Assembly (NCBI RefSeq): GCF_027924565.1
Contig: NZ_AP027041.1
Location: forward strand, 3,794,748 to 3,858,747
Direction of reading: 5' to 3'
Length of the DNA stretch: 64,000 nucleotides
DNA from: Lysobacter auxotrophicus
GTDB lineage: Bacteria > Pseudomonadota > Gammaproteobacteria > Xanthomonadales > Xanthomonadaceae
Each line of letters opens with the position of its first letter. The stretch's first letter is position 1. Below are positions 29,510 through 43,117 of this stretch, one piece after another. A model generated the notes under the pieces. The model worked only from the letters and a program-made list of their open reading frames with translations. It did no database searches and was not told where the DNA came from. Both the position numbers and the translations under genes were made by a program.

Positions 29510-30232
29510 ATGTTCTTTAAGAAGACCACCGCCCGCGGTTCAGGCACCGCCCATAGGGGATATGCGCGCCTTGCGCACCGCCTGCAATGTGCCATCGGCT
29601 GGGTCGCGGCCGCGTCGCTGATGCTGGCGGTGGCCTTTCCCGCCTTCGCCCAGTCGGCCAAGGCTGCGCCCGCCGCGCAGCCCGCGCGCGCGGTGCTGGT
29701 GATGGGCGATTCGCTGTCGGCCGGGTACGGGCTCGCGGCGTCGCAGGGATGGGTCGCGCTGACCGCGGACCGCATCGCGAAGACGAAACCCGGCTGGCGC
29801 GTGGTGAATGCGAGCATCAGCGGCGAGACCACCGCCGGCGGCGCATCGCGCATCGAGGGCGAACTCAAGCGCAACAAGCCCGCGGTCGTGGTGATCGAGC
29901 TCGGCGCGAACGACGGCCTGCGCGGATTGCCGCTGGCGCAATCGCGCGCGAACCTCGACCGCATGATCGTCGCGTCGAAGAACAGTGGCGCGAAGGTGCT
30001 TCTGATCGGCATGCGCATGCCGCCGAACCTTGGGCGCGAATACACGCAGGCCTTCAGCGACAACTACACCGCACTGGCGAAACAGCACGGCGTGGCGTTG
30101 CTGCCGTTCCTGCTGGAACCCATCGCGACCGATCGCACCGCGTTCCAGGACGACAACCTGCATCCGGTCGCGAGCGCGCAACCGAAGTTGCGCGATCACG
30201 TGTGGACGCAACTCGCGCCGCTGTTGCGTTGA
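29510..30232 (+). CDS. tesA: SGNH/GDSL arylesterase / acyl-CoA thioesterase I
   Basis: GDSLSAGYG motif, GANDGLRG, DxxH near the C-terminus. Divergent from ybbA, as in E. coli. Confidence 0.88.
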   Translation: MFFKKTTARGSGTAHRGYARLAHRLQCAIGWVAAASLMLAVAFPAFAQSAKAAPAAQPARAVLVMGDSLSAGYGLAASQGWVALTADRIAKTKPGWRVVNASISGETTAGGASRIEGELKRNKPAVVVIELGANDGLRGLPLAQSRANLDRMIVASKNSGAKVLLIGMRMPPNLGREYTQAFSDNYTALAKQHGVALLPFLLEPIATDRTAFQDDNLHPVASAQPKLRDHVWTQLAPLLR

Positions 30233-30881
30233 TTCGCTGATCGCATTGCATGCATACGACCGTTCATTTCCCGACGAACGGTCTTGCATTCGTTTTTACG
30301 AATGCGTAACTTGCGCGACCTTCGTTGCACCACAAACTTTTCGAGTCAGTCGATCCTCATGAACGCCGTCGCCCACATCGCCAAGCGCCACGCACTGCAG
30401 CCGAACGGCCGCGGTCTGTGCGCGTTCGCGCCGCGACTGCGGGACGAAGGCACGTCCATCGACTGATCTCCTGCACACGGGAGATCGGTCACCCCGATCT
30501 CCCCGAGGCAATGCGAACGCCCTCGGGTCCACACCCGGGGGCGTTTTGTTTCCAGCGTTCGCAAAGGCCAGTCACACACGATCACAACGCGATTGCATCG
30601 CGCATCCCGAAGCATCCGGAGCATTGCTGGTTCCGATGAGGGGAATGCCGTGAAGCGCATCGGCGCTGCGCCTGGATGCTTCGGCGCGGGCGGCGGGCGG
30701 GTGCATTCGCAAACAGGATTGACGCTTCGGCCATCGTTCGCGATGGAACGCGGCGGCAATGAACGACGCATCACGCAGTACATCCACAGCGGTGCAGGTT
30801 TGCGGCGGAAGCCGTGCCTGCCCGGTGCGCGCGGCCGTGCCGTGGCGCATGCCGTGCATGCATTGCGGTGCGTCGTGCCAA

Positions 30882-30951
30882 GGGCAGTAGCTCAGCGGGA
30901 GAGCAATGGCGCATGCCATCGGTCGCCGGTTCGAGTCCGGCTTGCCCACCA
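30882..30951 (+). ncRNA. tRNA-like element 1 (likely tRNA mimic or pseudo-tRNA; truncated anticodon arm)
   Basis: U8-A9, D-arm GCTC-AGCGGGA-GAGC, variable CGGTC, T-arm GCCGG-TTCGAGT-CCGGC, 6-bp acceptor + ACCA. The anticodon arm is only ATGGC-GCAT-GCCAT (4-nt loop). Confidence 0.5.
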
Positions 30952-31022
30952 CTGGATAGCTCAGTCGGGTAGAGCATCAGGCCAATAACCTGAGAGTCGC
31001 GGGTTCGATTCCCGCTCCAAAC
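30950..31022 (+). ncRNA. tRNA-like element 2 (pseudo-tRNA; defective acceptor stem, no CCA)
   Basis: D-arm GCTC-AGTCGGGTA-GAGC, anticodon arm TCAGG-CCAATAA-CCTGA (C33, 'AAT'), variable GAGTC, T-arm GCGGG-TTCGATT-CCCGC. The acceptor strands pair at only 4 of 7 positions. Confidence 0.45.
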
Positions 31023-31436
31023 GACCTTTCACGTCGTTGCACACCGGGACGAAAGTCCCTCCACGGAAACACCCCTTGCGGTGTTCCGCCGAACGCGTCG
31101 CTTCGTGCGTCGCGCGAAACGGAAACCGCAGCGGTGGATCCGCCGGGCTGCCGCCCTAGGGCGTGCCTGCGCTGGTGGTTCGCGTTTCGATCGCACGGCG
31201 TGTTCGTGCATCGGGGTTCGACGGCCTTCGCAGTGCATGCATCGAACGCGACGTGCTCCGCGGGTTCGGCGTCACGGGGTGTTTCCAACTTTTTCGATGT
31301 GCGCTGCGCCTGGCATTTCAGCGCTGTGCACCTCACGCCTCCTGCGCACTCGCGCAAGGAGCGAGCTACACGCGGCGACCGATCCCTCGCGCACCAAGCG
31401 GATCGGACCACCAGAGCCAACAAGGAGGACATTCCG

Positions 31437-32564
31437 ATGTTCTGGACCAAGAAGGTCGTGATCGGTGACGGCGAGCGCGGCCTGGTGTATCGCAACCGTC
31501 AATTCGCAGGCGTCATCGCGCCGGGCGTGCACAAGTGGTTCGACCCGTTCGGCGCGGTCGAAGTGAAGGTGCACAACATCGCGCTGCGCGCCGAGTACGT
31601 CGGCAGCGACGAGAACGCGCTGGTCGATGCACTGGGCGCGCGCCTAGCCGAAACCTTCGTGCTCGCCGACATCGGCGTGGACGAGGTCGGCCTGGTGATG
31701 AAGAACGGCCGTCTCGAGGAGGTGCTCGCGCCGGGCTCGCGCCGGTTGTACTGGAAGGGCCCGATCGCCGTGGCGATCCGCACGCTCGCGCTGCAGGACG
31801 AGCCGGACGTGCCGAACGATGTCGCCACGCGCCTGCGCCAGCTCGGTGTGCTCGAAAAGGTCGCCGTCGTGCTGGCGGTGCCGGCCGAGTTCGCCGGCCT
31901 GGTGTTCGTCGACGGCAAGCTCGCGCGGGTCGTCGGCGCGGGTTCGTACGCCTTCTGGAATTTCCGGAAGAACGTCGTCGTGCAGGCGGTCGATCTTCGC
32001 GTGCAGTCGCTCGAGGTCTCCGGCCAGGAGCTGCTCACGCGCGACAAGGTCAGCCTGCGCGTGAACCTTGCCGCGAGCGTGCGCATCGTCGATCCGGTGG
32101 CCGCGATCACGAAGGTCGCCAAGTACGGTGACTACGTGTACCGCGAACTGCAGTTCGGCCTGCGCAAGGCGGTGTCCGCCAAGACGCTGGACGAACTGCT
32201 CGGCGACAAGGCGTCGCTGGATGCGGACATCTTCGCGTACGTGCGCGGTCGCGTCGGTGAGGTCGGTGCCGAGTTGCTCGGCGTCGGCGTCAAGGACGTG
32301 ATCCTGCCGGGCGAGATGAAGGACATCCTCAACGCGGTCGTGCAGGCGGAGAAGTCGGCGCAGGCCAACGTGATCCGCCGTCGCGAGGAGGCCAACGCCA
32401 CGCGTTCGCTGCTCAACACCGCGCGACTGATCGAGGAGAGCCCGGTGCTCATGCGCCTGAAGGAGCTGGAGGCGCTGGAGAAGATCACCGAGAAGATCGA
32501 CAAGCTCACCGTGTTCGGCGGCCTGGACGGCGTCATGAGGCAGCTGGTGAGCCTGAAGCAGTAA
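31437..32564 (+). CDS. SPFH/band-7 (stomatin/prohibitin-like) domain protein, no TM anchor, C-terminal coiled coil
   Basis: Perfect SD AAGGAGG upstream of the ATG. 375 aa. SPFH core followed by a coiled coil (AEKSAQANVIRRREEANATR…). Confidence 0.8.
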   Translation: MFWTKKVVIGDGERGLVYRNRQFAGVIAPGVHKWFDPFGAVEVKVHNIALRAEYVGSDENALVDALGARLAETFVLADIGVDEVGLVMKNGRLEEVLAPGSRRLYWKGPIAVAIRTLALQDEPDVPNDVATRLRQLGVLEKVAVVLAVPAEFAGLVFVDGKLARVVGAGSYAFWNFRKNVVVQAVDLRVQSLEVSGQELLTRDKVSLRVNLAASVRIVDPVAAITKVAKYGDYVYRELQFGLRKAVSAKTLDELLGDKASLDADIFAYVRGRVGEVGAELLGVGVKDVILPGEMKDILNAVVQAEKSAQANVIRRREEANATRSLLNTARLIEESPVLMRLKELEALEKITEKIDKLTVFGGLDGVMRQLVSLKQ

Positions 32565-32617
32565 GCTGCGTGCAGGCGAACGGATTCGCCTGCACGCCTT
32601 TCACAAGGAATGGAACC

Positions 32618-33844
<1,227 letters not shown>

Positions 33845-34004
33845 AGCAGGCCGCTTACGCGGCACGGCCGCGTGGCCTGCCGAATGCCCAGCCATGGAGG
33901 GCCGGGCTGGGCTTTCCGGAAGCCGGGTGCGTGACGCCATGGATGGCATCGGCGCTTCCTTCGAAGTGGCTTTCGTTCGAGGCGCCGCTTCGATCTTCAT
34001 CAAG

Positions 34005-34095
34005 CCGCTTTGTAGCCCGGGTAAGCGAAGCGCACCCGGGTTTCAGCCGCCTCGGCGAAGGCTCCCCGGGTGCGCTTCGCTTACCCGGGCTACAA
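34005..34095. repeat. REP inverted doublet (GTAG-type REP, REPIN-like)
   Basis: TGTAGCCCGGGTAAGCGAAGCGCACCCGGG …30 nt… CCCGGGTGCGCTTCGCTTACCCGGGCTACA. Other copies at ~20833-20910, 48925-48965, 54712-54795, 55168-55200, 60488-60578 and 61738-61835. Confidence 0.85.
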
Positions 34096-34240
34096 GAGCG
34101 GGCCCGGAAGGTTGGATTGCGCTTCGCCGGGAAACGACGGGTTCTTTCATGCATGGGAATGCGTGCGTGATCGCGCGCGCCGACCCTCACCCCAACCCCT
34201 CTCCCGGAGGGAGAGGGGCTCAACACAGGCGGCTTGAGCG

Positions 34241-34762
34241 CTACGCCAGCCCGCGCGGCAACTCCACATCCGCGCGCATCAACCGCGCGACACCCTGCCA
34301 GGCCAGCGACACCGCGAGGCAGCCGACGAGCAGGCCCGCCCAGTCGGCCGATTGCGGCGACAGCGTCGGCCACACGCGTTCGAACGCCGGCATCCACTGC
34401 GCGCCGTAAGCCGACACCGCGTAGAGCACCGCGATGGCGAGCGCCACGCCGAGCAGGCGAAGCAGCCAGCGTTCCAGCAGTTCGCCGGCCGCCGGCGTGC
34501 CTTCGACGTGACGCACGATCTGTGCGGCGAGGTCGTAGGGCACCGGCTCCATCGCGGGCGTGCGCAACGCGCGTGCGATGAGGCGGTATTCGGCCAGTCG
34601 CGAATCGGCCGGATCCAGCGGCTGTCCGCGCCGCTCCTGTTCCAGCGCGCGTTCCTGCGCCTGCCATTCGGCTTCCAGGCGCAGGGCGTCGAGGTTGCGC
34701 CAGGCGTTGCGGTTCATCGGCGGCTCGTCGCGGTCGGGCTTGCGATCGTCGGGTGTGTTCAT
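34241..34762 (-). CDS. Anti-sigma factor (single TM), partner of the upstream ECF sigma
   Basis: 173 aa. Cytoplasmic N-terminus, one TM helix (LLGVALAIAVLYAVSAY). 4-nt overlap with the sigma gene. Confidence 0.65.
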   Translation of the reverse strand: MNTPDDRKPDRDEPPMNRNAWRNLDALRLEAEWQAQERALEQERRGQPLDPADSRLAEYRLIARALRTPAMEPVPYDLAAQIVRHVEGTPAAGELLERWLLRLLGVALAIAVLYAVSAYGAQWMPAFERVWPTLSPQSADWAGLLVGCLAVSLAWQGVARLMRADVELPRGLA

Positions 34763-35331
34763 GCGGTCACTCCCATCCGGGCCTGCAGGCGTTCGCGCAG
34801 TCGCGCCCGGGTCCGGAACAGATGGCTCTTGATCGTACCTTCGGCGAGACCGGTGATGCGGGCGATCTCGACGATGGGCACTTCATCCAGGTGATACAGC
34901 GTCAGCAGCGTGCGCTGCAACGGCGGCAGCGATTCGATTTCCTCATGGAGACCGGCAGCGATCTCGGCATCGGCGCAGGCGGTTTCCAGATCGAAGCCAT
35001 CGCTCATCTGGTCCAGCAGCGAGATGCCGTCGTCCTCGTCGCCCACCGGCTCGACGATCGCGATGCGGCGCTTCTCCAGGTGCCGCTTGGCGACCGAATA
35101 GGCCACCTGTCCGATCCACGATTTCAGCGCGCTCTCGCCCCGGTACTGATGCAGGCACTGGTGCACGCGGAGGAAGGCCTCCTGGCACAGCTCGCGCGTG
35201 TCCTCCGGCTGGCGGACCATGCGCTGGATGATGTGCCAGCACAGGCCCTGGTACTCGCGCACGAGGCGTTCGAACGCGCCGGGCACGTTGCCCAGCACGG
35301 CGTCCACCAGCTTGCGGTCGTCCTCGGTCAC
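34759..35331 (-). CDS. ECF-type RNA polymerase sigma-70 factor
   Basis: Region 2 (LCQEAFLRVHQCLHQYRGESALKSWI) and region 4 HTH (EIARITGLAEGTIKSHLFRTRARLRE). Confidence 0.88.
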   Translation of the reverse strand: MTEDDRKLVDAVLGNVPGAFERLVREYQGLCWHIIQRMVRQPEDTRELCQEAFLRVHQCLHQYRGESALKSWIGQVAYSVAKRHLEKRRIAIVEPVGDEDDGISLLDQMSDGFDLETACADAEIAAGLHEEIESLPPLQRTLLTLYHLDEVPIVEIARITGLAEGTIKSHLFRTRARLRERLQARMGVTA

Positions 35332-35483: not shown

Positions 35484-35810
35484 ATGAACTTCGAAATCCT
35501 GATCCCGATCACCCTGTTCATCTGCGTCGTCTACGCCATCAAGGTGGTGGTGGACGCCCGCACCCGCGCCAAGCTGATCGCGAGCAACGGTTCGGAAGAC
35601 CTGATCCGCTCGCTCGTGCAGGCCGAAGCGCTGCAGCGCCGCCACGCCTCGCTGCGCTGGGGCATCCTGCTGCTGGCGGTCGGCCTGGGGTTCGCGCTGA
35701 TCGAAGCCTTCGGCTGGAACGAGATCACCCCCGGCGTCGTTGCCGTGCTGCTCGGCGTGACGGGCCTCGGGAACCTGGCCGCCTACGCAGCCTCGCGGAA
35801 GCTGGGGTGA
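35484..35810 (+). CDS. Small membrane protein (108 aa), function unknown
   Basis: Two TM segments. Plausible codon usage. Confidence 0.45.
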   Translation: MNFEILIPITLFICVVYAIKVVVDARTRAKLIASNGSEDLIRSLVQAEALQRRHASLRWGILLLAVGLGFALIEAFGWNEITPGVVAVLLGVTGLGNLAAYAASRKLG

Positions 35811-42599: not shown

Positions 42600-42660
42600 G
42601 AAGCCGGGCGACATACGCAATAAAAAAAGCCCAGCCGAAGCCAGGCTTTTCGGTAACGCT
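42600..42660. terminator. Bidirectional rho-independent terminator (two hairpins) between the DUF3037 gene and cspA
   Basis: Hairpin GCCCGGC-CGAA-GCCGGGC. Second hairpin AAAAGCC…GGCTTTT, flanked by A-runs on the plus strand and T-runs on the minus strand. Confidence 0.6.
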
Positions 42661-42673
42661 TGGTGCGAGAGGC

Positions 42674-42883
42674 TTACAGCGCCTGCACGGCGTCGGCCTG
42701 CAGGCCCTTCTGGCCCTGGACGACGGTGAAGGACACCTTCTGGCCTTCCTGCAGGCTCTTGAAGCCCGAGCCCTGGATCGAACGGAAGTGGACGAACACG
42801 TCCTCGCCGTTCTCGCGGCTGATGAAGCCGAAGCCCTTGGCATCGTTGAACCACTTGACGGTACCGGTTTCACGGTTCGACAT
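42674..42883 (-). CDS. cspA: Cold-shock protein, CspA family
   Basis: [15 protein letters not shown] (RNP1) and VFVHF (RNP2). 69 aa. Confidence 0.95.
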
Positions 42884-43117
42884 GACTTTCTCCTATACGG
42901 ATGGTGAGACCGCTAACGCGGCTATGGAGCTGGTCGCAAGGAGAAAGCGAGGTGCAACGATGGAGAACGGAATCCACATCGGGTCACATTCACCGTGACC
43001 CTTGGCTAACGCAGCGCAGGGCATGTTGGACGTGTTTGGTCGGATTTGCAAATCCCGACCGGGCCGGGCGGTTCAGATACGATCCCCGTTCAGGTTTTCC
43101 AGGATCCCTGCGCTGCG

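Follow-up and report, generated by a model that had tools for sequence, protein, structure and literature searches.

The locus considered here raises the question of what two tandem elements of tRNA shape do upstream of a slipin gene if neither of them seems able to decode. It lies in Lysobacter auxotrophicus (NZ_AP027041.1), within a stretch of 64 kb that we refer to as the window and whose positions serve as coordinates throughout. A first-pass annotation, made from the letters alone, had placed two tRNA-like units at 30882-31022, had called them tRNA mimics or pseudo-tRNAs unable to decode, and had likened them, with the SPFH and rtcB genes downstream, to the bacterial Y RNAs known as YrlA. 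The existence, conservation and structure of the units and their obligate pairing with slipin are demonstrated here. As for their nature, we lean on balance towards functional non-decoding tRNA-shaped domains, the Lysobacterales form of b7a-tRNA, that are the probable RNA partner of slipin and, where it is present, of RtcB.

Two tRNA-shaped units and their conservation

The two units are as follows.

30881..30951, plus strand: tRNA-like unit 1 (Rfam tRNA model, 43.7 bits; ARAGORN 'tRNA-???'; covariation in 50 genomes)
30953..31019, plus strand: tRNA-like unit 2 (Rfam tRNA model, 51.0 bits, local match; covariation in 50 genomes)

Upon inspection of 30882-31022, all of the sequence features that had been claimed for both units were present. 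Unit 1 has U8-A9 at 30888-9, a D stem GCTC/GAGC with G18G19, a 5-nt variable loop (CGGTC) and the T arm GCCGG-TTCGAGT-CCGGC. Its acceptor has 6 bp (30882-87 with 30942-47) followed by an encoded ACCA (30948-51), and its 14-nt anticodon arm, ATGGC-GCAT-GCCAT, ends in the 4-nt loop GCAU. Unit 2 has U8-A9 at 30957-8, a D stem GCTC/GAGC, the variable loop GAGTC and the T arm GCGGG-TTCGATT-CCCGC, and its anticodon arm, TCAGG-CCAATAA-CCTGA, carries C33 and an 'AAU' triplet (AAT in the DNA). Only four of seven acceptor positions pair in this unit (TGGA 30953-56 with TCCA 31016-19) and there is no CCA. Its would-be positions 1-3 (30950-52) coincide with the CCA of unit 1, and its 3' end directly abuts another hairpin.

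Using Infernal, the Rfam tRNA model (RF00005) was found to match unit 1 at 30881-30949 (E 5.5e-6 per 64-kb window), with 4 nt aligned in place of the expected 7-nt anticodon loop, and unit 2 at 30953-31019 (E 5.3e-8). The latter match is only local, covering model positions 4-67, because there are just four acceptor pairs (UGGA/UCCA). No further match to the tRNA model exists in the 64 kb. ARAGORN reported unit 1 as 'tRNA-???' with the two-base anticodon (ca) and left unit 2 uncalled. Neither ARAGORN nor Infernal returned two canonical high-scoring tRNAs, and the defects that had been read by hand are visible in the model alignments. Minimum-free-energy folding of the single sequence gave no cloverleaves (z = -1.9) and is uninformative; failure of this kind is usual for tRNAs.

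In order to follow the units beyond the window, 80 loci of slipin relatives (44-94% identity) were taken from a species-representative genome collection. They span Lysobacter, Luteimonas, Pseudoxanthomonas, Xanthomonas, Stenotrophomonas, Dyella, Rhodanobacter, Arenimonas, Steroidobacteraceae, Competibacter and others. In nearly all 80, ARAGORN reported one or two tRNA-like genes 350-550 nt 5' of slipin on the same strand. The anticodon that it called differs at almost every locus and includes A34 anticodons, which are not known to be used by bacteria. A tandem covariance model, built on 25 tandem pairs, scored the complete tandem at 99-177 bits in the window and in 49 genomes, and it is on these 50 genomes that the counts in this section are based. 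The tandem pair is also present in 100 metagenome contigs, and chance cannot account for such recurrence.

Standard pairs occupy 98.5% of stem cells in the 50-genome alignment, compared to at most 47% in a control with partners slid by 1-3 columns, and changes on both sides of a pair (compensatory) occur in 29/38 pairs. An alignment made with MAFFT only agrees with the covariance-model alignment on pairing, and both cloverleaves were recovered de novo by RNAalifold on the whole 560-nt region. The D stem of unit 2 is invariant, its D arm and T arm are near-invariant, and the elbow and core positions U8, A14, G18G19, C48 and T54-A58 are all intact and invariant. The comparison with homologous loci found the defects conserved as well: the short acceptor of unit 2 is TGGA/TCCA in 39/50 genomes, with the covarying variants GAGA/TCTC, AAGA/TCTT and TCCA/TGGA elsewhere, and the loop of unit 1 is a tetraloop (GCAU, GAAA, GCAA, GGGA and others) in 21/50 and has 7 nt in 10/50. 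All five pairs of the unit 2 anticodon stem covary, as do the acceptor and anticodon stems of unit 1, and an encoded (A/G)CCA follows unit 1 in about half of the genomes. One genome (L034) has GNRA tetraloops on both units.

What is not conserved is the anticodon. The unit 2 loop has 7 nt in 44/50 genomes, with 42 distinct sequences among the 50 and 27 different 'anticodons' among the 44 seven-nt loops. In these 44 loops A37 is found in 42, A38 in 30, U36 in 27 and U33 in 27; U33 is otherwise universal in tRNA anticodon loops. Among 100 metagenome examples there are 49 different unit 2 loops, and in five cases a 62-nt unit 2 body is identical yet the loop differs. At low divergence the loop changes about three times faster than four-fold degenerate sites (0.42 vs 0.15), and also about three times faster than the remaining unpaired positions of unit 2. 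Positive selection on the loop was considered and rejected, as four-fold sites are compositionally constrained in GC-rich genomes and the species pairs are non-independent. The substitution pattern suggests relaxed constraint at least, with diversifying selection not proven. A co-varying 'specifier' partner for the loop (a kissing loop or a cis T-box-like element) was likewise rejected, as sites complementary to the cognate loop are no more frequent than for non-cognate loops (18/44 vs 22.1 +/- 2.9), and no co-varying complementary partner of the variable loop of unit 2 was found in the surrounding RNA.

The conservation pattern, on which the non-decoding reading rests, supports the view that selection preserves the tRNA shape and discards decoding. 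That the units are decoding tRNAs, ordinary or unusual, or else decaying tRNA pseudogenes is hardly credible to us. Both do exceed the RF00005 gathering score (29), and the single unit of distant relatives (see below) has a 7-bp acceptor and CCA and is called a tRNA by ARAGORN. Decoding is nevertheless at odds with the 4-nt loop, C33 and the 4-bp acceptor, and with an anticodon that is unconserved among orthologues, even between near-identical RNAs, and can be of the A34 type. The units are not decaying pseudogenes either, because they show strong purifying selection and compensatory changes: the arms are near-invariant, 29 pairs covary, and no related locus with enough sequence lacks the element. 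The two names that the annotation had offered thus fared differently, in that mimics remains apt for conserved elements and pseudo-tRNAs, in the sense of decay, does not.

The pairing of the RNA with slipin

The two genes downstream of the units are the following.

31437..32564, plus strand: slipin-family SPFH/Band-7 protein, 375 aa (Pfam Band_7, 9.6e-31)
32570..33844, plus strand: RtcB RNA ligase (Pfam RtcB, 6.7e-125)

The link of the units to an SPFH-rtcB pair was borne out: the slipin ATG at 31437 lies 417 nt 3' of unit 2, and RtcB comes next, its open reading frame being listed from a GTG at 32570, with the ATG at 32618 a possible true start. We assessed the pairing from both sides. On the protein side, tRNA-like units were found on the same strand in 75/75 slipin loci with at least 700 nt upstream (48 tandem, 27 with a single unit). 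On the RNA side, a 30-nt signature of the 5' domain (described in the next section) was used as an exact query and retrieved 112 metagenome contigs. Two T arms stand at the expected spacing in every contig with room for them, and in 72/72 of those that extend at least 900 nt further downstream a slipin gene lies on the same strand at a distance of 486-1184 nt. RtcB was found within 3 kb after slipin in 45/73 related loci. Because of these values (75/75 and 72/72 vs 45/73), the obligate pair is the RNA and slipin, with RtcB a frequent third member. Of the partner genes that had been proposed, SPFH therefore holds and rtcB does not hold as a constant one.

The slipin of the window is 100% identical to the Lysobacter auxotrophicus slipin, and no membrane segment was predicted in it. 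Its N-terminus (31437-31990, residues 1-185) contains the motif G-x-x-G-L-V-x-x-x-G-x-x-x-x-V-L-x-P-G-x-x-x-x-W three times, at about residues 12-35, 83-106 and 152-175. The protein thus consists of two additional partial copies of the SPFH N-terminal beta-hairpin, then a full SPFH domain and long C-terminal helices. Its sequence matches in the PDB are the cage-forming stomatin and QmcA. The AF2 model is of low confidence (pLDDT 63), too low for fold searches.

In the lineages with a single unit (L057-L068, which are Competibacteraceae, and L053, L056, L060 and L066) the unit has a 7-bp acceptor, often with CCA. It is followed by a small hairpin and then, about 20-60 nt downstream, by a free-standing T-arm-like hairpin, GCGG-UUCGAMU-CCGC, and upstream of the unit lies a CAGCGG...GCGUGUAUC domain akin to the 5' domain of the window. 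The anticodon of the single unit varies between close relatives (Met, Ile, Arg, His, Cys, Thr).

Two side observations concern these loci. One metagenome contig of 1.1 kb (L081) carries the 5'-domain signature twice on the minus strand, at 45-74 and 537-566, about 490 nt apart, which could be an RNA duplication or an assembly artefact. In five related loci an array of 5-17 canonical-looking tRNA genes lies 1-2.5 kb 5' of the RNA-slipin module; the tRNAs of these arrays score about 55-67 bits with the tRNA model, compared to 43.7 and 51.0 for the units of the window.

L030, 297-1043: tRNA array
L039, 1-590, minus strand: tRNA array
L053, 32-971: tRNA array
L063, 35-840: tRNA array
L066, 164-1715: tRNA array

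The larger RNA around the units

As judged from the alignments, the tandem units form the centre of a predicted conserved multi-domain RNA of about 500-560 nt that is absent from Rfam; no Rfam family matches the RNA region beyond the tRNA model and a sub-threshold YrlA match. The order is 5' domain, unit 1, unit 2, a hairpin like an anticodon stem-loop, a GNRA hairpin and a 3' domain of about 230 nt. The whole-region RNAalifold fold has 117 predicted pairs, 66 of them with compensatory changes. The parts other than the two units, and a conserved block next to the slipin start, are listed below.

30788..30852, plus strand: 5' domain core (RNAalifold, 29 genomes)
31020..31038, plus strand: hairpin abutting the unit 2 acceptor (6-bp stem AACGAC/GUCGUU, 7-nt loop CUUUCAC)
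31046..31059, plus strand: GNRA-capped hairpin GGGAC-GAAA-GUCCC (25/25 aligned genomes, 2 covarying pairs)
31065..31298, plus strand: 3' domain, about 230 nt (RNAalifold, 25 genomes)
31379..31428, plus strand: hairpin CCGAUCC (31379-85)/GGAUCGG (31400-06), then ACCACCAGAGCCAACAAGGAGG including the Shine-Dalgarno sequence at 31422-28 (conserved block, leader alignment, 27 genomes)

The 5' domain comprises two hairpins, one at 30790-30798/30817-30824 (CAGCGG...CCGG) and the other, which is near-invariant, at 30825-30850 (GUGCGCGCGGC..UGCC..GCGYAUGC). In relatives it reaches about 50 nt further 5'; in the window this outer part (about 30740-30787 with 30853-30880) is less clear. There are compensatory changes in 22 of its 38 pairs, and its helices recur in the whole-RNA fold. 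A candidate sigma-54 promoter at 30843-58 (TGGCGC-N5-GTGCA) was rejected, as it is not conserved as a promoter and is part of the 5'-domain hairpin.

The stem of the hairpin at 31020-31038 covaries (CAUGAC/GUCAUG, ACUGC/GCAGU, CCAGA/UCUGG), and an equivalent with a 7-nt loop follows unit 2 in 42/50 genomes. Its loop is semi-conserved, with UGU at loop positions 2-4 in 24/50. The consensus loop in relatives, CUGUCAC, is that of the tRNA-Asp anticodon loop, and the variants CUGUUAC, CUGUGAA and CUGUAAA match Asn, His and Tyr loops, that is, those with queuosine-family anticodons. Both tRNA-guanine transglycosylase and colicin E5 act on anticodons of this family.

The 3' domain is closed by a long-range helix of 31065-31075 (GGAAACACCCC) with 31276-31286 (GGGGUGUUUCC), encloses a second long-range helix of 16 bp (31131-31148 with 31255-31272), and is followed by a pyrimidine/U tract at 31287-31298. 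Over the 25 genomes, 26 of its 37 pairs show compensatory changes and 92.4% of positions are paired, compared to at most 48% with partners slid; the domain was recovered again in the whole-RNA fold. Alternative pairings exist within it. The segment GGAAACACCCC (31065-75) has two alternative partners, the neighbouring GCGGUGUUCC (31078-87) and the distal GGGGUGUUUCC (31276-86), and GCGGUGUUCC can instead pair with GGAAACCGC (31121-29). That both alternatives are kept across species suggests a possible conformational switch before the U-rich tract. In Lysobacter sp. TAF61 (L005, 2920-3000) the whole 230-nt 3' domain is deleted; the pair of tRNA-like units is retained together with the three hairpins after it, and the RNA ends 93 nt from the start codon, which argues for co-transcription with slipin.

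Partner RNA, regulatory leader or known family

In the reading that we favour, the RNA would be transcribed together with, or just ahead of, the slipin message and would fold as independent domains, the tRNA-shaped ones engaging proteins that recognise tRNA by shape. It would be the partner of a slipin assembly, plus RtcB where present, serving as a scaffold or cofactor, or as a decoy that the enzymes attacking tRNA anticodon loops cannot cleave. Selection retains the body of the tRNA, with the stack of acceptor and T arm, the elbow formed by D loop and T loop, and an anticodon stem of constant length, and not the anticodon: unit 1 has a stable tetraloop in its place, and unit 2 keeps a generic 7-nt loop, YNNNUAA-like and with A37 conserved, in which positions 33-35 are free. 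The decoy idea would fit unit 1, in which the anticodon loop is a tetraloop, and such a decoy or partner would have an analogue in enterobacteria, where a Y RNA goes with Ro60 beside rtcB. Co-transcription, processing, protein binding and a scaffold or decoy role are what we infer from the comparisons above. No sigma-70-like promoter or intrinsic terminator was detected in 30000-32000, and this, together with the 93-nt spacing in L005, hints at co-transcription.

Several points weigh against a partner RNA. The b7a-tRNA class to which we relate the units was unvalidated as of 2018, and expression, processing and binding at this locus are predictions from sequence. No recognisable RNA-binding domain was found in slipin by the Pfam scan, the AF2 model being poor (pLDDT 63). 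In 28/73 loci there is no RtcB nearby, and therefore a role specific to RNA ligation cannot be general. Lastly, the upstream position on the same strand, the hairpin next to the ribosome-binding site and the alternative pairings of the 3' domain would fit a cis-regulatory leader equally well.

Such a leader is the main rival, and we regard it as a serious possibility without thinking it probable. As sensors within the 5' untranslated region, the tRNA mimics would govern the expression of slipin and rtcB, either by being cleaved by RNase P or an anticodon-loop nuclease or by binding a titratable tRNA-binding protein (mimicry of the thrS-operator type); cleavage or binding would refold the downstream domain and turn on read-through or translation. 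This would agree with an RNA that is always 5' on the same strand at a constrained distance, with the missing promoter and terminator signals in 30000-32000, with the mutually exclusive pairings of GGAAACACCCC with GCGGUGUUCC or GGGGUGUUUCC before a U-rich tract, and with the conserved hairpin adjoining the Shine-Dalgarno sequence. There is also no rtcR-like regulator among the scanned neighbours, and therefore another mechanism of sensing RNA damage would be needed. However, a distance of 350 to more than 1000 nt separates the tRNA-like units from the start codon, well outside the range of mimicry-type operators, and about half of the species have only a poor U tract. Since L005 retains the tRNA-like units despite the loss of the 3' domain, they are independent of the putative switch. 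An RNA of about 560 nt with 117 predicted pairs and a modular build is, moreover, more typical of a functional non-coding RNA.

A further reading assigns the units to processing punctuation only, that is, to cleavage signals for RNase P, RNase Z or RNase E through which the slipin-rtcB mRNA or the flanking domains would be matured or stabilised, the units themselves having no later role. Punctuation by tRNA-like structures is well established elsewhere, in mitochondrial transcripts and in tRNA-mRNA co-transcripts such as that of the tufB operon, and unit 1 encodes the RCCA that bacterial RNase P recognises, with (A/G)CCAC in 21/50 genomes. A minihelix of acceptor and T arm is all that RNase P requires, and yet conservation or covariation extends to the D arm, the elbow nucleotides and the anticodon stems; unit 2, with its 4-bp acceptor, would be a poor substrate and is yet the most conserved element; and two different units are maintained side by side. 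We therefore find this reading improbable.

The favoured reading, a functional non-decoding partner RNA of slipin, can be compared with several known systems. The closest known is b7a-tRNA, and the RNA of the window shares its tRNA-like fold, its Band-7 neighbour and its RtcB neighbour. As summarised by Wang et al. (10.1101/312249), Burroughs and Aravind predicted b7a-tRNA in 2016 beside a Band-7 protein and RtcB; the same summary describes it as functionally parallel to YrlA/Ro60 and as experimentally unvalidated in 2018. In the literature accessible to us we found no experimental validation or dissection of the class. Both b7a-tRNA and the RNA of the window are tRNA-like RNAs beside a Band-7/SPFH gene, often with RtcB, and the description of b7a-tRNA in that summary, 'strongly resembles an authentic tRNA' (10.1101/312249), suits the single unit of distant relatives with its 7-bp acceptor and CCA. 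Judged against this summary, through which the original definition is available second-hand, the window differs in having two different tandem units, of which unit 1 has a tetraloop and unit 2 a 4-bp acceptor, in placing them within a conserved structured RNA of about 0.5 kb, and in being paired obligately with slipin and not RtcB. The locus is a variant of the kind that had been predicted. The reading of the annotation is right in its essentials and has to be redirected from YrlA to b7a-tRNA, from RtcB to slipin, and from the two units to an RNA of about 0.5 kb.

YrlA (RF02553; rsr-yrlBA-rtcBA operons) resembles the RNA of the window in being a non-decoding tRNA mimic beside rtcB in which the T-loop/D-loop elbow is kept; it has been proposed to be an RNA-repair cofactor or a competitive inhibitor of an anticodon nuclease (PMC7790460). 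We rejected membership of the YrlA family, with binding to Ro60 (Rsr), as very improbable. RF02553 does match weakly over the T arm of unit 1 and the D arm of unit 2 (29.4 bits; E 1.3e-4 in a 301-nt stretch, 8.6e-4 in a 2-kb stretch), and rtcB is in the genomic neighbourhood. The gathering score is, however, 69, and a T arm followed by a D arm is the documented false positive from dimeric tRNAs, which the YrlA survey filtered out (PMC4201824). In YrlA the tRNA-like module is circularly permuted, its acceptor stem is closed and it sits on a Ro-binding helix; the window has two separate cloverleaves in normal order and none of these features. Its inter-unit acceptor strands (UUGCCCA... / ...UGGA) are non-complementary, so that no closed permuted module can form. 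No TROVE/Rsr gene was found among the neighbours scanned, which were the flanking genes only. The likeness to YrlA as a family, which the annotation had suggested, was accordingly dropped.

The vault particle, a cage of MVP with an SPFH/Band-7-type shoulder and vault RNAs, also couples an SPFH-type protein to a small structured RNA. The beta repeats, SPFH domain and long helix of the slipin loosely parallel the repeats, shoulder and cap helix of MVP; this is a resemblance only, the AF2 model being of low confidence. Vault RNAs, unlike the RNA of the window, are not tRNA-like, and cage assembly has been seen for MVP, whereas the slipin here is known from sequence. With the E. coli thrS operator and RNase P-processed tRNA-mRNA co-transcripts the window shares a tRNA-like structure 5' of a coding region. 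In those cases the structure is a single arm by the ribosome-binding site, or a genuine tRNA, whereas the window has complete non-decoding cloverleaves more than 400 nt upstream in a large RNA. In Anabaena, the TrcR regulon unites a tRNA array, rtcB and slipin in one translational-stress regulon (PMC10272220). The relatives of the window likewise combine extra tRNA genes, RtcB and slipin, with tRNA arrays in five loci; unlike in the window, the genes of the Anabaena regulon are dispersed, its tRNAs are decoding and no tRNA-like slipin leader is reported. In Pseudomonas aeruginosa an SPFH gene lies within the rtc locus (PMC13086221).

A bolder form of the partner reading, which we offer tentatively and consider unlikely as it stands, makes the RNA of about 0.5 kb an obligate subunit of a soluble SPFH (slipin) cage, a ribonucleoprotein like the Ro or vault particle. 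The tRNA-shaped domains would be bait or uncleavable decoys for anticodon-loop nucleases, and the loops of unit 2 and of the adjoining hairpin (tRNA-Asp/Tyr/Asn/His-like) would track the toxins of each lineage. If true, this would assign a function to a widespread orphan SPFH family and add a counterpart of Ro and vault particles in bacteria. For the questions of which substrates bacterial RtcB repairs and why its gene keeps company with tRNA-like RNAs such as Y RNAs and b7a-tRNA, the locus offers a defined object, with more than 150 aligned examples, a structure supported by covariation and conserved 'anti-decoding' features. It points to the slipin protein rather than RtcB as the true partner of the RNA, and its flanking domains make this one of the larger conserved bacterial RNAs that have no Rfam family. 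Xanthomonas, Stenotrophomonas and Lysobacter are tractable hosts for direct study.

The genes scanned around the locus encode a GDSL esterase, an ABC transporter, slipin, RtcB, an ECF sigma factor, a DUF6249 protein and an AsnC regulator; no rsr (TROVE), rtcR or rtcA was found among these flanking genes, the scan covering them and not the whole genome. An origin in a mobile element or defence island was considered and rejected: no slipin homologue was found among phage records, there was one marginal plasmid match, and no PADLOC family exists for slipin or RtcB. In 33845-34750 no Pfam match was obtained in any frame tested. About 0.9 kb past rtcB lies a convergent ECF-type sigma factor (Sigma70_r2/r4; 34759-35331, minus strand), followed by the DUF6249 protein (35484-35810, plus strand). 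Elsewhere in the window, the Rfam cspA thermoregulator (RF01766) matches at 42622-42926 on the minus strand (81.5 bits vs a gathering score of 78), and this match overlaps an apparent cold-shock protein gene.

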